Shown piece by piece: positions 1 to 21,000 of a stretch of DNA of 64,000 nucleotides. The DNA comes from an uncultured Parachlamydiaceae bacterium (GTDB lineage: Bacteria > Chlamydiota > Chlamydiia > Chlamydiales > Parachlamydiaceae): NCBI GenBank assembly GCA_963752155.1, contig CAVVXH010000015.1:1-64000 (forward strand), in the 5' to 3' direction. Every line of letters begins with the position of its first letter. The stretch's first letter is position 1. Position numbers: made by a program.

Positions 1-3000
1 TTATCAAAGATTGTTCAAAAGAATTGAATCAAATGACTGACATGTTAATGAAATTACAAGAATTAGAATTGCTGATTAATAAGCGAGAAGATCTCGACCG
101 AGCATTCGACTCTGTGCACATTTCCTTGGACTCAAAAGAAAGATTTATAAGAACTATAGAAGAAAAGATCAATAAGGTCAGGTTGATCTATGGAGCAGAT
201 GATTGGAATAGACGTATTGAATTTTTGGCTGGTCGTTTAACTAATAAATCTGAGTATTTCCGCCATTATCTTCTGACTGAAGAAGATGCTAAAAAGCTAC
301 ACGAAGCAGAGGCATTAACTTTAGCTTTTAATATACTACAAGCTCCATTTTTAGATATGAGTCGTACAAGGGAATGGCTTATTTCAAATTCTTCTAGAGA
401 GTTAAGTTCATTCTTTCTTGATGTTCCGAGTGAGACTTTTACCATTTTTGATCCAAAATTCACATTTTTTGATGTAGAAGATTTAAAAGGAACATTTAAA
501 ATTCATCATGGAAAAGTAAATCAAGCTCTCATGGCAGCCACTTTGCTATTTAAGTATAAAATTGGATCAACAGGAAGATAAAAGGAACTTTATGGAACCA
601 ATTACTCAATATAGTATGCCTATACAGCAAGATTGCTGTTCTAGAAAAATTAAAAAATCGTTGGAGCCTTTATCCAATAGTGGAGAAGGGGTGAAAATCA
701 TCCAAGAAATCTTGATGAGGGATCTTCTTTGCCTGCACGATGTTGATCAGATAGATAAGACCTATCAACAAATATGCCTACTTGAAAGACAAGTAGAGCA
801 CATGCCAAAATGTAATACTCAACATGCTCTTAATAGTATTAACGAAAAGGTGACTTTTTGTGTGAAGGATTTCGGTAAAGATCCAGTTAAAGCCGCGAAA
901 AGCTTGATTTCGTTGTATTATTTGAAGAATTTTTCCTACAAAGATTTATCTCTCGAAAATGTCGTTTACGCATTACTTCGTGGATCGAAATGTGATGCGC
1001 GAATAATGACATGGGTTGCTCGTTACCTTCCTACATGTGGTTCAGAAGCAAAGCTTGATGAAGATATTAAATTTCTAATGAAATCTTATTCAAGTGATCA
1101 GGTAACAAAAATTTTGAATCAAAAGAAAGAGACAATACAACTCATTGACGCTAAAAAACGAGAACTAGAGAATTGGAGAGAAGGTGACCCAAAAGATTTT
1201 CCCGTCTATTTTGATGAATTGCTAGAGGATGCATGCTTTCATCTCTATGATCACATCATGGAGATGCGAAAATGGAATACCCGTAATGATCGGCAAGCTG
1301 CAATTGAGAAAAAGTCCTTTTCTCTACTCTCCCATATTGTAATTGAGACCAAACAAGCGATCATCAGGAAGATAGAAAGCTCTATCCCTAATAAATATCC
1401 CAATATTTTATTTCTATTAGGTGGTTCTGGAGCAGGTAAATCCACTACTTTCTGTTTTCTTCGCGGAGATGAAATGGTTTTGAAAGGTTTCCACTATGAA
1501 TCGAGAAAGGATAAAAATTCTCTTATCGGCCATGAACAAGCCACCTCTTGTACATTTCTGCCTACGGTTGAATTAATCAATGATTGGTTGATTGTAGATT
1601 TTCCGGGATTTGATGATAGTAATGGACCCTTTATCTCTTTGGGAATGGAATGTGCTCTAAAAGCACTGATCAGAAAACATCGACCTAAAGTTTTGATCAT
1701 TGAGTCGATCACAAATACAGAAGGTAGATTTGCAGCGGCCGCCCATCTGGGATCTCGTTTGAAACGTTTGCTGGACAAGAAAGAGGAGTGTGTATTAGGC
1801 ATTACAAAATATTCTAAGGATCCCGATTTTGGAAGAATTAGAGCCATAGAAGAGCAACAAAAAAGAGAACGATCGCTTCCAACACCTGAAGAGAATCAAC
1901 TCACAACAGAAATTAACTTGCTTTCTTCTCTAAATCAAGAAAGTTTTCAACCCATGATAAGACAAAAACAACAGCGACTTGAAGAGATACAAGAAGAAAA
2001 AGCACGGCAGCACCAAGTTCCATTGCCTGAAAATGATGAAAAAATCAACAGTAAGAAAAATCTCCAGGAAAGAGAAAATGAACTATTAAAACAAATTGGA
2101 TTAGCAAAAATTATCCGATTTGATGATTTACAAAACTCTGCGTGTTTACCTTCCTATTTTGCAGATCTCTCTCAAGGAAAAGCTCTTAACGCAAATCCCG
2201 AACATCCTTTGGATCCAGATCATGAAAAATTAATAGATCATCTATTTGAAAATAATCTGTTGGATGAATTGAAAAGGGTGAGGTATGGTGATTTTGAATT
2301 CGAGAATTTTGAACAGAGCGTGAAAGAGTCCAGCTTAATCAGCACACTTTTTTCTCAATCCCATCCAGAAATTGGAACGTTTCTCCATTTGCCAGAAATC
2401 GATCGCCGCATTGTACAAAATTATGACAAAAAAATTGTAGGAGAATGTCTCGACAAATACAAGAGATCGGTGATTCTTAATCTCGATATCTCTCTTATCA
2501 AAGTCGCACTAAAGGAAATGATAGGAATAGCAGATCCAATGTCAATTTTAGATCTTCAAAACAAATTTACTAAATTGGAAAAATATGTGATGGGCTTATT
2601 AGGAGTTGAACTGAGTGGAGATGAAAACACTGAAGAGATTGAAGCAAAATGGATTGAAAAACGAAAAGATATCGCAGCTGCTATTTCAGCCGTAGAAAAA
2701 GACTATACTTTACCTGATTGGGTAAATGTTTTGATCTCAATTCCACTTGGAATACCTAAAGGGATTCATACATTAGTTAAATGGTACGCACAAAAACAAG
2801 TGGAGAAAAAAACTATCAAAAAAATTATCAAAGATTGTTCAAAAGAATTGAATCAAATGACTGACATGTTAATGAAATTACAAGAATTAGAATTGCTCAT
2901 TAAAAAGCGAGATGATCTCGACCAAGCATTCGACTCTGTGCACATTTCTTTGGACTCAATAGAAACATTTAAAAGAACTATAGAAGAAAAGATAAATAAG

Positions 3001-18000: not shown

Positions 18001-21000
18001 TGAGTGCCCGTAATGATCGGCCAGCTGCAATCGAGAAAGAGTCCTTTTCCCTACTCTCCCATGTGGTAATCGAGACTAGGGAAGCGATCATTAGAAAGAT
18101 AGAAAGCTCTATTCCTCACCATTGTCCCAATATTTTATTTCTATTAGGTGGCTCTGGAGCAGGTAAATCCACTACTTTCTGTTTTCTTCGCGGAGATGAA
18201 ATGATTTTGAACGACTGCCACTATGAATCGAGAAAGGATAAAAATTCTCTTATCGGCCATGAGCAAGCAACCTCTTGTACATTTCTGCCTACGGTTGAAT
18301 TAATCAAAGATTATTGGTTGATTGTAGATTTTCCTGGTTTTGACGATAGTAATGGCCCCCTTATCTCTTTGGGAATGGAATGTGCTCTAAAAGCACTTAT
18401 CAGAAAACATCAACCTAAAGTTTTGATCATTGAGTCGATCACAAATACAGAAGGTAGATTTGCAGCGGCAGCCCAATTGGGATCTCGTTTGAAACGTTTG
18501 CTGGACAAGAAAGAGGAGTGTGTATTAGGCATTACAAAATATTCTAAGGATCCCGATTTTAGAAAAATTCGAGCAATAGAAGAGCAACAAAAAAGAGAAC
18601 GATCGCTTCCAACACCTGAAGAGAATCAACTCACAACAGAAATTAACGTGCTTGCTTCTCTGAATCAAGAAAGTTTGCAACCAATGATACAACAAAAACA
18701 ACAACAACTTGAGGAGAAACAAAAAGAAAAAGCGCGACAGCAACAACTTCCATTGCCTGAAAATGATGAGAAAATCGAGAGTAGAAAAAATCTCCAGGAA
18801 AGTGAAAATGAACTATTAAAACAAATTGAATTAACAAAGATCATCCGATTTGACGATTTACAAAACTCTGCGTGTTTACCTTCCTATTTTGCAGATCTCT
18901 CTCAAGGAAAAGCTCTTAACGCGAATCCCGAGGATCCTTTGGATCCAGATCATGAAAAATTAATAGATCATCTATTTGTAAATGATCTGTTAGATGAAAT
19001 GAAAAAGGTGAAGTATGGTGATTTTAAATTCGAGAATTTTGAACAGAGCGTGAAAGAGACCAGCTTAATCAACACACTATTTTCTCAATCCCATCCAGAA
19101 ATTGGAACGTTTCTCCATTTGCCAGAAATCGATCCCCGCATTGCACGAAATTATGACAAAAAAATTGTAGGTGAATGTATCGACAAGTACATGAGATCGG
19201 TGATTCTTAATCTCGATATCTCTCTCATCAATACAGCACTAAAGGAATTGAAAGAAGTAGCAGATCCGATGGAAATTTCAGAGCTTAAAACCAAATTTAC
19301 TAAATTGTCAAAATATGTGATGGGCTTATTAGGAGTTGCACTGAGTGGAAATGAAAACACTGAAGAAATTGAAGCAAAATGGATTGAGACACGAAAAGAT
19401 ATCGCAGCTGATGCTTTAGCTGTAGAAAAAGAGTATACTTTACCTGATTGGACAAATGTTTTGATTACAGTTCCACTTGAAATACCTAAAGCGATTCATA
19501 CATTAGTTAAATGGAACGCACTAGAACAAGTGGAGAAAGAAACTTTCAAAAAAATTATTACAGATTGTTCAAGAGATTTAAATCAAATGTATGACATGTT
19601 AATAAAATTATATGAATTGCAGTCGCTAATTAAAAATAAGCGTTAGGTAAATAAACTTAAATAAACTCTTTATCCTTTAAATATGGGAGGCGAATGACCT
19701 CCCCGTATGAATTCTCTGAAACAATTTGTAAAATAATCAAAAGAGTTCTTGGCTGGTCGCTTCAAGTCTCTCCTACCGCCATTACTTTTCAACCCGCCAT
19801 TACTTTTCAACGAATCTTTTGTCAATTTCTGATTGGGTTCCATCTGTGACGTACTGAGTATTCCACAAATTTTTATCGTTTTTATCGTTGTATCGTTGAT
19901 TATGTCAAATTGGCATAGAAGATGCATGACTAAATCAAGAATTAAATTAAGGAAATGCTAAATGAAAGGAGGTTTTGTATGAAAAAATTATCAAGAACTT
20001 TTTTAGCAGTAATGATATTTTTGCCAACACTTGTTTTATTTGCGCGTGATGACACCAGACTTGGAAGAAACTATGGAAGTTATGATACTCGCAAAAACGA
20101 ATATTATAATTATGGTGATCATTATGGGGGTTACGGCGGGTATGGGCAATATGGCGGCTACGGAGGATATGGTGGGTATGCTGGATATGGTGGATATGGT
20201 TACGGTGTAATTAATCCTTATCCCGATGCGCAATCGCAACCAGGCATGAGCGATGACAGTAATGCTCTTTACCAATCGTATTTAAGACACGACGAAGATG
20301 GTTATTAAACGTGAACGAATAAAAGGTGAAGAGCGAAAAATTGTGTTCTTCACCAAATTTTTAAAAGTGGAAGTGGTACATCTCTTAAAGCAATTGTATA
20401 CCTTCAGATTGAGCAATATCATAAATCGGAAGATTTACTTTATCATTCACTATATTAAGAACTACATCAATTTTTTGTAAACCAATAGTTTCATAAAGCT
20501 CACACAAGAAATTGAGTTTTCTTTCAAGAGCTTCTTGGGAAGAAGTCATCGTTGTTTCGATGTATAAATCAATATCTCCACCTTTGGCATGAATATTAAC
20601 CTGTGAACCAAATAACCACAAATGATCTGTGGGAGCAAATTGATGACGAAATGCAATCTTTAGTTTTGTTACTACGGAAGATTCGAGGCGAATATTTTTT
20701 TCGGTCATAACAACTCACTTCGTTGTTCTTCCTGAAGCCATTGAGCCCTAGTTGTTTCAATAAAAATTTGCAAAAATGACCAATAATCCAGTAATTCTTT
20801 AGCTGCAATTACAGCTTGATTAAAATTATCTGCCATAAGTTGAGGATTTTCAGGATAATCATGAACTAAATGATTGCGTAATTCACGAATTTTTAACCAC
20901 CAAGAGGAACTAGGTAATAACTCAAGCTTTTCAAGTTTGTGCAATATATCCAAAAAGCTGTAATTAGCAACATCCTGTTGTGAAAAATGCAATATTAACG

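Follow-up and report, generated by a model that had tools for sequence, protein, structure and literature searches.

A four-residue Met-Glu-Pro start common to otherwise unrelated effector-candidate proteins in a Parachlamydiaceae genome

The window analyzed here, a stretch of 64,000 nucleotides from the genome of an uncultured Parachlamydiaceae bacterium (contig CAVVXH010000015.1, positions 1 to 64,000; assembly GCA_963752155.1), opens with a tandem gene array at 592-19646, whose 930-aa GTPase-like P-loop proteins form a birth-and-death family. The six tandem copies starting with Met-Glu-Pro (MEP) that an earlier note had placed in the window were all recovered (Table 1). An AlphaFold model of copy 2, a protein with 77 homologues, reached a pLDDT of 79 and a pTM of 0.77, with the P-loop core at about residues 279-420 and residues 1-21 at a pLDDT below 50. 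The untagged paralogue at the end of the array has about 62% of the tandem family's length in common with the other members.

Table 1. Genes of the tandem array and other genes of the window related to the MEP start.
Feature	Position	Strand	Length (aa)	Start	Remarks
Tandem copy 1 of the 930-aa P-loop family	592..3396	+	934	MEPITQYS (ATGGAACCAATT at 592)	No Pfam match at E 0.001
Tandem copy 2	3407..6235	+	942	MEPITQYS	Copy chosen for modelling
Tandem copy 3	6246..9068	+	940	MEPIMPIQ	
Tandem copy 4	9046..11838	+	930	MEPITQYN	
Truncated tandem copy	11848..13068	+	406	MEPITQYS	264 nt from its end to the next copy
Tandem copy 6	13332..16130	+	932	MEPISIPT	
Family fragment	16117..16566	+	149	MESNRMPIQQ	Pro to Ser at position 3
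Untagged paralogue	16941..19646	+	901	MHTHSTSS	Different N-terminal part with DUF4116 (PF13475)
Unrelated MEP protein	43882..44892	+	336	MEPIGFFTPVYV	First ~95 residues form a module common to other proteins
1294-aa protein	44907..48791	+	1294	MESSSFYF	Paralogue of a MEP protein on contig C1 (MEPISSYS)

Genes were called across the genome from stop-to-stop frames of at least 300 nt, using codon-usage and overlap filters and taking the first ATG as the start, which yielded 2335 genes. These independent calls contain 40 MEP starts vs 9.8 expected (Fisher odds ratio 7.0, p 2e-16), in line with the excess claimed before, and MEP ranks second among all starts after MKK (61). Glu occupies position 2 in 202 genes and Pro position 3 in 113; Pro is the most frequent residue after Met-Glu (40, followed by Ser with 27), and Glu is the most frequent residue preceding Pro3 (40, followed by Ile, Asn and Asp with 13 each). 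When the residue pairs at positions 2-3 were ranked by deviation, EP was the top outlier and KK came second (p 9e-8); MDP starts are enriched as well (13 vs 5.1 expected). Of 1070 internal Met-Glu occurrences in the same genome, just 24 precede a Pro. Single-linkage clustering by blastp (1e-10) divides the MEP proteins into 28 families, namely three with 8, 4 and 3 members and 25 singletons; the Poisson tail for 28 vs 9.8 is 1.5e-6, and the genes are spread over 14 of the 22 contigs. A Shine-Dalgarno core is located at -20 to -4 in 32 of the 40 MEP starts (986 of 2335 in all calls), and 32 of the 40 have no in-frame upstream GTG or TTG alternative. These counts are lower than those of the earlier note because of our own length and start rules, which lost three MEP starts whose ATG, preceded by a Shine-Dalgarno site, lies further downstream, one GTG start, one gene cut by a contig end and four small frames of 52 to 81 aa, while two of the 40, an ABC ATPase and a tRNA-synthetase fragment, are doubtful and have no Shine-Dalgarno site. 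The corrected total of about 47 agrees with the 47 proteins counted earlier; the statement that they belong to many unrelated families also stands, in that no blastp link joins the families (28 among these calls, 34 in the note), and shared protein ancestry does not explain the motif.

The MEP start is concentrated on a particular kind of cargo. Of the 40 MEP proteins, 37 have no Pfam family or bear an effector-like domain, vs 42 of 129 control genes (odds ratio 25.5, p 9e-12), where the controls are 129 of the 222 genes from 16 random 20-kb stretches and the effector-like and housekeeping labels reflect the analyst's judgement on Pfam matches. The domains found are Ank-UCH, SH3-WD40, LRR, RhoGAP, PARG-like, NADAR and Ank, and one MEP protein is AvrB-like, its homologues clearing the Pfam AvrB_AvrC cut-off. 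A signal-peptide-like start occurs in none of the 40 (385 of 2295 other genes), and only three are housekeeping proteins, two of them with the doubtful starts mentioned above. The association of MEP with Pfam-less or effector-like proteins was confirmed, and its carriers are long, non-Sec proteins that are Pfam-less or have eukaryote-like domains. The proposal that MEP is a tag picking out the effector set was not: it covers about 5% of effector-like genes, and therefore the whole set is not picked out, and none of the seven proteins with eukaryote-like domains in the control sample has a MEP start. The genome has a type III basal-body gene (CdsD domains), and a search of 13 small neighbouring genes found no type III chaperone families.

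The motif spans four residues, M-E-P-aliphatic. Val, Ala, Ile or Leu fills position 4 in 31 of the 40 MEP starts, vs 33% of other M-x-P starts and 30% overall, and among 25 family representatives V occurs in 8, A in 6, I in 6 and L in 2. Codon use and the MDP excess point to a protein-level motif rather than a DNA cassette: Glu is encoded by GAA (31) or GAG (9) and Pro by all four codons (CCA 26, CCT 8, CCG 5, CCC 1). Upstream identity is 0.37 among family representatives vs 0.31 in random genes with a Shine-Dalgarno site, which argues against a shared cassette, and comparison of the representatives revealed no shared DNA upstream or downstream of the start beyond composition; a search for a promoter motif common to the MEP genes also found none. 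Residues 4-50 of the MEP proteins are rich in S+T+P+N+Q (33.7% vs 26.0%, p 1e-6) and in Pro (7.1% vs 4.2%) and poor in Leu (7.3% vs 11.3%); Ser is not enriched (8.0% vs 7.6%) and exceeds 10% of the first 50 residues in only 8 of the 25 representatives. An acidic residue within positions 3-12 is found in 9 of the 25 representatives vs 1326 of 2295 other genes.

In at least five families, MEP arose in place and not through a shared leader, as judged from the colinear N-termini of homologues that start differently; this runs counter to the suggestion that a leader was spread by recombination. In the tandem family, whose N-termini are colinear, the nine rows that belong to this genome or to a near relative (about 80% identity) start with MEP, and the 24 distant rows start otherwise. 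The PARP-module family has MEP in 3 of 79 members and Pro at position 3 in 23, with A in 31 and V in 10 at position 4. A single member of the 126 in the AvrB-like family, the protein of this genome, starts with MEP, and homologues in other lineages start with MS, MA or MT. In the N-terminal module of the 336-aa protein, EP, ES, DY or EV stands ahead of a conserved F-[FY]-[ST]-P-V-Y, and the contig C1 MEP protein has homologues in congener G001 that start with MNN and MNS.

Across genomes, the frequency of Pro following start sites composed of a Shine-Dalgarno sequence and ATG-GAR was used as a proxy. It amounts to 41/234 (17.5%) in this genome, 22/235 (9.4%) in congener G001 and 8/174 (4.6%) in congener G002, with a median of 4.1% over 40 other chlamydial genomes, which upholds the claimed lineage specificity; because MEP is strong in a single species but falls by half in one congener and to background in the other, it is not a tag of the genus, as had been supposed. 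Twelve of the 22 sites in G001 head frames of at least 100 aa, of which 10 are Pfam-less, one has ankyrin repeats and one matches SidM_N at 26.6 bits, under the cut-off of 27; none of the G000 homologues of these 12 frames starts with MEP. Congener G001 thus bears MEP on other families.

About 40 long, otherwise unrelated effector-candidate proteins of one chlamydial genome share one four-residue start. The reading toward which we lean, as plausible though short of probable, is that MEP may form part of a disordered N-terminal type III export leader in a subset of candidate effectors; that the MEP proteins are secreted, and that the motif acts in export, we infer. Selection would have repeatedly installed M-E-P-aliphatic, through substitutions at positions 2-4, in some of this chlamydial lineage's candidate type III secreted effectors, within their disordered leaders. 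As a piece of the export leader, the motif could be read by the type III apparatus or by a lineage-specific accessory factor, and it might tune the recognition, order or efficiency of an export that would also be possible without it. The enrichment, the restriction of cargo, the in-place origin, the lineage gradient and the leader-like composition are all observations in favor of this reading. Published type III leaders are described as enriched in Ser, Thr and Pro and depleted of Leu, with the first 15 residues sufficing in chlamydiae (PMC2669295), and as having Pro or an aliphatic side chain as their third or fourth residue (PMC3338616). For family members from the related Neochlamydia and Protochlamydia, type III secretion in a surrogate host is driven by the 20 codons at the 5' end (PMC4209131). 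The traits of the MEP leaders match these published ones. Against the export-leader reading, acidic residues are among those reported as depleted in the signals (PMC2669295), and Glu at position 2 breaks the published rule that the first 12 positions are free of them (PMC3338616). Ser is not enriched, most effector-like genes have no MEP, G002 is at background, and the searches described above found neither a chaperone family nor a common promoter motif. The signals are also known as degenerate and functional across species (PMC4209131, PMC3338616), and a conserved machine would not obviously need a lineage-specific consensus.

An unlikely but arguable alternative is that, after delivery, host enzymes read the retained Met-Glu through NatB-type acetylation or an N-degron pathway; in a variant, Pro3 could be an aminopeptidase-resistant cap that sets how long the effector persists in the host or where it is located there. 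MEP lies at the extreme N-terminus of host-directed-looking proteins, and the NatB class (Met followed by Asp, Glu, Asn or Gln) is favored more widely here: D/E/N/Q stands at position 2 in 45.5% of proteins 700 aa or longer vs 22% of those of 100-250 aa, and in 17 of 42 Pfam-less or eukaryote-like controls vs 18 of 87 others (p 0.02), long proteins are depleted of A, S and T at this position, and the MDP excess fits as well. According to its title, a preprint reportedly describes a processed toxin effector acetylated by the host cell. NatB is considered to act mainly on nascent chains, however, and a host mark explains neither the need for Pro3 and an aliphatic position 4 nor the MS, MA or MT starts of homologues in other lineages. 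It is quite unlikely that the fate of MEP within the bacterium is what counts, whether through Met retention, poor deformylation, an aminopeptidase-resistant Glu-Pro or slowed first peptide bonds, so that synthesis or storage of long proteins with disordered leaders would reach the proper level. MEP genes do stand alone with strong initiation regions (A-rich at -16 to -1; Shine-Dalgarno site in 32/40 vs 42% overall; median upstream gap of 339 nt vs 199), CCA is preferred for Pro (16 of 25 representatives), and the leaders, being disordered in the copy 2 model, are exposed to exopeptidases; but Glu would be unexplained, because any bulky residue at position 2 retains Met, and it would not be clear why MEP is confined to effector-like proteins and to a single lineage or why housekeeping genes do not use it.

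We give little credence to a functionless inherited 5' module, spread by duplication, recombination or terminal reassortment, of which only the first residues are still recognizable. Modules do move in this genome: proteins of 289 to 773 aa also carry the first ~95 residues of the 336-aa protein, whose C-terminal part is found again on others, fusions join the PARP module with WD40, Ank, SEL1 and LRR partners, and the N-terminal part of gene 16941-19646 has been swapped. The in-place changes at positions 2-3 in five families colinear with differently starting homologues nevertheless largely refute such a leader, the 28 families have no blastp link and only composition in common in their flanking DNA, and drift is not expected to spare four residues yet wipe out the rest. 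The chance is slimmer still that an RNA element, AUGGARCC(N)RY at the start codon, pairs with a small RNA or an initiation-region regulator of an effector regulon, with the amino acids as a by-product. Glu has only two codons, both able to pair with U, CC makes up the invariant part of the Pro codon, the CCN to UCN change in five MEP/MES paralogue pairs would preserve G-U pairing, and codon 4 of most representatives opens with a purine followed by a pyrimidine. Yet MDP (GAY) is enriched too, the motif always lies exactly on the start codon, and the PARP-module family keeps M-x-P-[AV] across distant lineages while position 2 varies, which points to the peptide; a search of the genome (80% complete) found no CsrA gene, and, in a weak test, 22 of the 212 ATGGARCC copies in the genome proved intergenic and none resembled a small-RNA gene. 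A gene-calling artefact or chance has a negligible probability: the two doubtful housekeeping starts and the 9 to 10 of 22 pattern sites in G001 that head no real frame would fit it, but it is refuted by the agreement of two independent sets of calls, the Shine-Dalgarno site at 80% of the MEP starts, the scarcity of upstream alternatives, the significance both over all genes and after the families are collapsed, and the spread over contigs.

Returning to the export-leader reading, MEP resembles the type III leaders of the Pseudomonas syringae pattern and those active in the chlamydial surrogate-host work in lying within disordered, polar, Pro-rich and Leu-poor first residues, in having both a Pro and an aliphatic residue at positions 3 and 4, where the pattern has one or the other, and in marking unrelated effectors scattered around the genome; unlike those leaders, which have no fixed sequence and avoid early acidic residues, it is a four-residue consensus with Glu2, confined to one lineage and a subset of candidate effectors and known from sequence. 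NatB substrates share with it the Met-Glu and the retained Met, and long proteins of this genome show the wider D/E/N/Q excess, but NatB specificity makes no call for Pro3 and an aliphatic position 4, and the MEP proteins come from bacterial ribosomes. Terminal reassortment, a concept developed for type III effectors, is matched by the exchange of N- and C-terminal modules among effector genes here, whereas MEP sits on no shared module and its flanking residues are homologous to those of relatives without it. MIX is an N-terminal marker of type VI effectors, and a preprint is said to describe another such delivery marker on polymorphic effectors; these resemble MEP in preceding unrelated C-terminal parts, but they are folded domains, tens of residues long, that recombination has spread, whereas MEP has four residues and arose in place, and no contractile sheath gene was found in a search of the 80% complete genome. 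RxLR and PEXEL, the host-targeting motifs of eukaryotic pathogens, and Y/F/WxC, reportedly a short motif shared by unrelated effector families, are like MEP in being short, in occurring on many unrelated effector families of one lineage and in serving as search tags; they are located behind a Sec signal peptide and exert their effect once the protein has been secreted, whereas MEP includes the initiator Met.

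The G000 assembly, which represents the uncultured Parachlamydiaceae bacterium, comprises 3.13 Mb in 22 contigs with 38% G+C and is rated 80% complete; its contig C15 opens with the 64 kb of the window. Genes were called independently of the earlier note by a crude procedure, in which stop-to-stop frames of at least 300 nt were scored for codon usage, overlaps were removed and the first ATG was taken as the start; this yielded 2335 genes. Forty of them encode proteins that begin with Met-Glu-Pro (MEP), against 9.8 expected from the numbers of Glu at position 2 (202) and Pro at position 3 (113) (odds ratio 7.0, p = 2e-16), so that the over-representation first described was reproduced. 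Only Met-Lys-Lys was more common (61 versus 32 expected, p = 9e-8), in keeping with the usual A-rich preference at the second and third codons. Pro is the most frequent residue after Met-Glu and Glu the most frequent before Pro-3, and no other residue pair at positions 2-3 deviates as strongly as Glu-Pro; Pro follows Met-Glu in 40 of 202 cases at protein starts versus 24 of 1070 internally. Single-linkage clustering by blastp (1e-10) grouped the 40 proteins into 28 families (of 8, 4 and 3 members and 25 singletons), which bears out the many unrelated families of the earlier note (34 in its count), and the excess was still significant when each family was counted once (1.5e-6). The starts themselves are credible: 32 of the 40 are preceded by a Shine-Dalgarno core at −20 to −4 (versus 986 of all 2335 genes) and 32 of the 40 have no upstream in-frame GTG or TTG; two, in an ABC ATPase and a tRNA-synthetase fragment, are doubtful. 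Our rules missed three MEP starts that lie further along the frame, at an ATG preceded by a Shine-Dalgarno site, together with one MEP gene that uses GTG, one truncated at a contig end and four short frames (52 to 81 aa), and the corrected total of about 47 agrees with the 47 reported previously. The excess is almost certainly not an artefact.

A Pfam search (E 1e-5) of all 40 proteins assigned no family to 28 and effector-like or eukaryote-like domains to nine, namely ankyrin repeats with a ubiquitin hydrolase, SH3 with WD40, leucine-rich repeats (three proteins), RhoGAP, a PARG-like domain, NADAR and ankyrin repeats, with the PARG-like and NADAR proteins counted as effector-like by our own judgement; the remaining three have ordinary bacterial functions (the ABC ATPase, the tRNA-synthetase fragment and a LysR regulator). 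A control sample of 129 genes, drawn at random from the 222 genes in 16 random 20-kb stretches of the genome, comprised 35 genes lacking a family, 7 that encode eukaryote-like domains and 87 of other kinds. Proteins that are Pfam-less or effector-like, a class that rests on Pfam and on judgement, thus make up 37 of the 40 MEP proteins versus 42 of the 129 controls (odds ratio 25.5, p = 9e-12), and the proposed link between the tag and such proteins was upheld, as was the claim that they are long (median 620 aa versus 293 aa). Among proteins of at least 700 aa, 19 of 167 start with MEP. A signal-peptide-like start, defined as a hydrophobic window beginning within the first 25 residues, was found in none of the 40 MEP proteins versus 385 of 2295 other genes, and any membrane-like window in 7 of 40 versus 751 of 2295. 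None of the seven control proteins with eukaryote-like domains starts with MEP, which contradicts the claim that the tag picks out the effector set; as an effector marker it is far from complete. Throughout the genome, 45.5% of proteins that reach 700 aa have Asp, Glu, Asn or Gln at position 2, versus 22% of those of 100-250 aa, and Ala, Ser and Thr are depleted at that position among long proteins, a bias suggesting that long proteins tend to keep the initiator Met.

The motif consists of four residues, M-E-P-aliphatic. In 31 of the 40 MEP starts an aliphatic residue (Ala, Val, Ile or Leu) occupies position 4, compared with 33% of the remaining Met-x-Pro starts and 30% over the whole gene set; among the family representatives this position is Val in 8, Ala in 6, Ile in 6 and Leu in 2 (22 of 25), and Ser is found at position 5 in 7. 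The leader that follows (residues 4-50) is enriched in Ser, Thr, Pro, Asn and Gln (33.7% versus 26.0%, p = 1e-6), with more Pro (7.1% versus 4.2%) and less Leu (7.3% versus 11.3%).

Five families allow the N-termini to be compared with homologues elsewhere, and each is colinear with them and differs only in the first positions. In an alignment of 33 sequences of the tandem family, nine copies from G000 and a near relative (~80% identity) read MEPIT, and the 24 more distant sequences, which for the most part begin with M-[NTSQ]-x-[VI]-T, continue into the same Cys-Ser and Glu-Glu-Gly-Val landmarks. In the PARP-module family, a Thr-Pro-Trp landmark served to anchor 79 full N-termini. Three of them start with MEP (that of G000 itself, a homologue with 63% identity and a sequence from a Parachlamydiaceae bin), but 23 have Pro at position 3, and position 4 is often Ala (31) or Val (10), suggesting that M-x-P-[AV] is an ancient feature of the family to which this lineage has added Glu-2. 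One of the two adjacent G000 paralogues has a GTG start before Glu-Pro; in public data the module (168 homologues) is fused to WD40, ankyrin, SEL1/TPR, LRR or SidE-like parts. The 400-aa MEP protein scores 23.0 bits with AvrB_AvrC, just below the cut-off of 23.2, and three of its homologues (470 at E 0.001, 106 at 1e-30) pass that cut-off, so that it probably belongs to an AvrB-like effector family outside plant pathogens; only the G000 protein among 126 full-length homologues starts with MEP, and MS, MA and MT dominate. The N-terminal module of the 336-aa protein reads MEPIGFFTPVYV in G000, MESIDFFSPVYV in a paralogue, and MDYVSFYSPVYI and MEVNTISPYRSIYI in the congener G001, and the 1202-aa protein of contig C1 (MEPISSYS) has G001 homologues that start MNNINST and MNSIIPY. 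Five paralogue pairs within G000 differ as MEP versus MES, a single C-to-T step. These observations argue against a leader carried by recombination and for repeated substitution to the same start. No homologue of the MEP RhoGAP protein or of a 1196-aa protein was found in the five relatives searched; a 1251-aa MEP protein had a partial match only, a 1439-aa family two outside homologues, both labelled partial, and the PARG-like protein one match beginning at query residue 77. As a separate observation, the first ~95 residues of the 336-aa protein open proteins of 289 to 773 aa in G000, G001 and the compared genome G022, and its C-terminal part recurs in proteins of 670-766 aa in another, G010; the modules appear to have been shuffled among effector candidates.

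Locations of the MEP genes and related features (window coordinates unless a contig is named)
Feature	Location	Length	Start	Remarks
Tandem array, six copies	592-16130	five of 930-942 aa, one cut to 406 aa	MEP	
Modelled copy (copy 2)	3407-6235	942 aa	MEP	
Cut copy	11848-13068	406 aa	MEP	
Family fragment	16117-16566	149 aa	MES	
Paralogue	16941-19646	901 aa	not MEP	different, DUF4116-bearing N-terminal part; ~62% of family length in common
Module-sharing protein	43882-44892	336 aa	MEP	
Adjacent PARP-module paralogues	contig C12, 27015-32285 (extracted locus L019:8733-11255 and neighbour)			N-terminal PARP module
AvrB-like protein	contig C2, 229194-230396 (extracted locus L002:9395-10594)	400 aa	MEP	
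Further MEP gene	contig C10, start ~1632, minus strand	546 codons to contig end	MEPIRDSQPTNV	
G001 protein with MEP start	G001 contig C168 (extracted locus L060:3-1508)			Legionella SidM N-terminal domain, 26.6 bits versus cut-off 27

The tandem MEP array taken as the place of the finding was recovered, with two further family copies on contig C10. The cut copy and the MES fragment are signs of birth-and-death turnover, and the 901-aa paralogue represents a module swap at the 5′ end. For the family as a whole, 77 homologues were detectable across chlamydiae, and some of these are joined to modules of the ankyrin-patatin, ubiquitin hydrolase or PARP type. Contig C10 also carries a further MEP gene, and a near-relative protein of 1346 aa with the same start combines ankyrin and patatin domains with the core of the tandem family. 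TRAFAC-type GTPases are defined by G1 (GxxxxGK[ST]), G3 (DxxG), G4 ([NT]KxD) and the GTPase fold. The tandem-family alignment keeps Walker A (GxxxxGKST), DFPG and TKY motifs; G285, G290, K291, S292, T293 and D344-F-P-G347 are invariant or nearly so, and the G4 region reads T413-K414-Y415, without the Asp of [NT]KxD. RsgA_GTPase is present in the precomputed Pfam annotation of some homologues. The AlphaFold model of the one copy modelled (pLDDT 79, pTM 0.77) contains a small alpha/beta nucleotide-binding core at ~279-420 amid long helical domains, and its best Foldseek matches, all weak (E 0.01 or weaker), were Irga6 of the immunity-related GTPases, Toc34, G-alpha and bacterial dynamin-like proteins; a profile search of PDB sequences matched P-loop stretches only (E at least 0.085). 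We read the tandem family as a putative GTPase-like P-loop family that may be under birth-and-death evolution.

The distribution of the start was estimated in 41 genomes without gene calls, by counting AGGA, 4-11 bases and ATGGARCC against AGGA, 4-11 bases and ATGGAR, a proxy whose background amounts to about ten sites per genome (9 to 10 in G001) and in which small counts are noisy and related genomes are not independent. The share was 17.5% in G000 (41 of 234 sites), 9.4% in G001 (22 of 235), 4.6% in the second congener, G002 (8 of 174), and 8.4% in G018, of another genus (14 of 166), with a median of 4.1% for the 40 other genomes and a maximum among them of 9.6% (5 of 52). Twelve of the 22 sites in G001 head frames of at least 100 aa, of which ten are Pfam-less, one has ankyrin repeats and one matches the SidM N-terminal domain just below the cut-off; the G000 homologues of these proteins, where present, start otherwise. 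Nine of the 14 sites in G018 head such frames (six without a family, a TPR protein, a methyltransferase and a protein kinase). These shares and frame contents suggest that the MEP habit occurs sparsely in the family, stands out in one congener, where other proteins carry it, and reaches its peak in G000; a tag of the genus as a whole, as first supposed, is contradicted by the background level of G002.

Two published studies place the type III leaders of chlamydiae and relatives in the first 15-20 residues (PMC2669295, PMC4209131), and a third describes an aliphatic residue or Pro as typical of position 3 or 4 in Pseudomonas syringae leaders (PMC3338616). MEP starts resemble the latter in having Pro at position 3 in all cases and an aliphatic residue at position 4 in most, and, like the unstructured first 15-25 residues that hold a type III signal, the first 21 residues of the single MEP protein modelled are disordered (pLDDT below 50), with the first helix starting at residue 29. 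The proteins look like type III cargo in being soluble and long, without a Sec signal, with host-type domains and a disordered, polar, Pro-rich and Leu-poor leader, and G000 has a CdsD-type basal-body gene. The CdsD-type domains, a Protochlamydia-type outer membrane protein family and homologues from sources named Parachlamydia sp., Parachlamydiaceae bacterium, Simkania and Rhabdochlamydia set G000 among the chlamydiae, with relatives of Parachlamydiaceae type. We suggest as the best explanation, just short of even confidence, that M-E-P-aliphatic may be part of a type III export leader that would tune recognition or the order of export for a subset of candidate effectors. On the other side, the same literature describes leaders as free of acidic residues up to position 12 (PMC3338616) or as depleted in them (PMC2669295), unlike the Glu at position 2 of every MEP start, although positions 3-12 are still acid-poor (acidic residues in 9 of 25 representatives versus 1326 of 2295 genes, p = 0.04). 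Ser, which with Thr and Pro is abundant in polar, Leu-poor type III leaders, is not enriched (8.0% versus 7.6%; above 10% in 8 of 25 representatives), the tag is missing from most effector-like G000 genes, G002 is at background, and type III signals are described as degenerate and portable (PMC4209131, PMC3338616). Among the 13 small neighbours of MEP genes scanned, with 87 other neighbours outside the scan, no type III chaperone gene was found. The idea that the cargo leader belongs to a contractile injection system was rejected, there being no match to the PF04984 sheath in the 80% complete G000 assembly.

Other explanations would place the constraint elsewhere. In the eukaryotic cytosol, NatB acetylates proteins that retain Met before Asp, Glu, Asn or Gln, and Met-Glu fits this class; the wider excess of these residues at position 2 of long and Pfam-less proteins lends some support to a host-side N-terminal mark, which we consider unlikely, and bacterial N-terminal handling or translation tuning seems still less probable. 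The motif could also be read as an RNA-level start-site element, AUGGARCC, since the codons for Glu and Pro allow little synonymous variation. Against this, the use of the two Glu codons mirrors that of the genome (GAA 31, GAG 9), all four Pro codons are used, Met-Asp-Pro is likewise over-represented (13 versus 5.1 expected), and the likeness of DNA between families is no greater than composition explains (identity 0.37 at −30 to −1 versus 0.31 for random Shine-Dalgarno-bearing genes; 0.30 at +10 to +39 versus 0.28 for controls). The constraint therefore looks like one acting at the protein level, and an RNA element is highly improbable. CsrA, considered as a reader of AUGGA, has no PF02599 match in the 80% complete assembly, and 22 intergenic sites among 212 copies of the motif included no convincing complementary small-RNA gene. 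Enrichment of k-mers in the 150 nt upstream of MEP genes returned AT-rich words only, sigma-54 and sigma-28 style patterns were unenriched (1 of 25 versus 24 of 2335; 0 of 25 versus 37 of 2335), and different MEP families were not significantly clustered within 10 kb (7 cases versus 3.4 expected, p = 0.08). A leader passively inherited through recombination or terminal reassortment, the earlier note's own alternative, is very unlikely, given 28 families without a blastp link, 5′ identities near those of controls and N-termini colinear with those of relatives that have no MEP.

Beyond a part in an export leader, it is conceivable, although we lean against it, that more than 25 unrelated effector families in one chlamydial lineage converged on M-E-P-aliphatic as a sequence-defined export or sorting tag with a lineage-specific reader, for which a chaperone, a sorting-platform variant or a host factor would be candidates. 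To our knowledge, type III secretion leaders are noted for the absence of a consensus, and how the apparatus recognizes them is an open question. A narrow search of open-access papers and preprints returned no report of Met-Glu-Pro or a comparable start tag, and we file the finding as a putative N-terminal export leader with a discrete, lineage-specific and convergently arisen consensus. Many unrelated effector candidates in one lineage have been driven to the same four-residue start, which provides a simple, mutable handle on what is read, as peptide or RNA, and by whom, a bacterial machine or a host enzyme. The start cheaply nominates about 45 effector candidates in the G000 species and a dozen in a congener among otherwise unannotated proteins, and the gradient among congeners gives a comparative means of tracing the factor responsible for the motif. 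Were it an export or sorting tag, the motif would rank as the first discrete consensus among bacterial type III substrates and as a bacterial equivalent of RxLR or PEXEL, besides providing a natural experiment in the evolution of a secretion code. Because RxLR and PEXEL follow a Sec signal peptide, which none of the 40 MEP proteins has, the MEP tag is not of the oomycete or Plasmodium kind, but it resembles those tags in nominating effector families.
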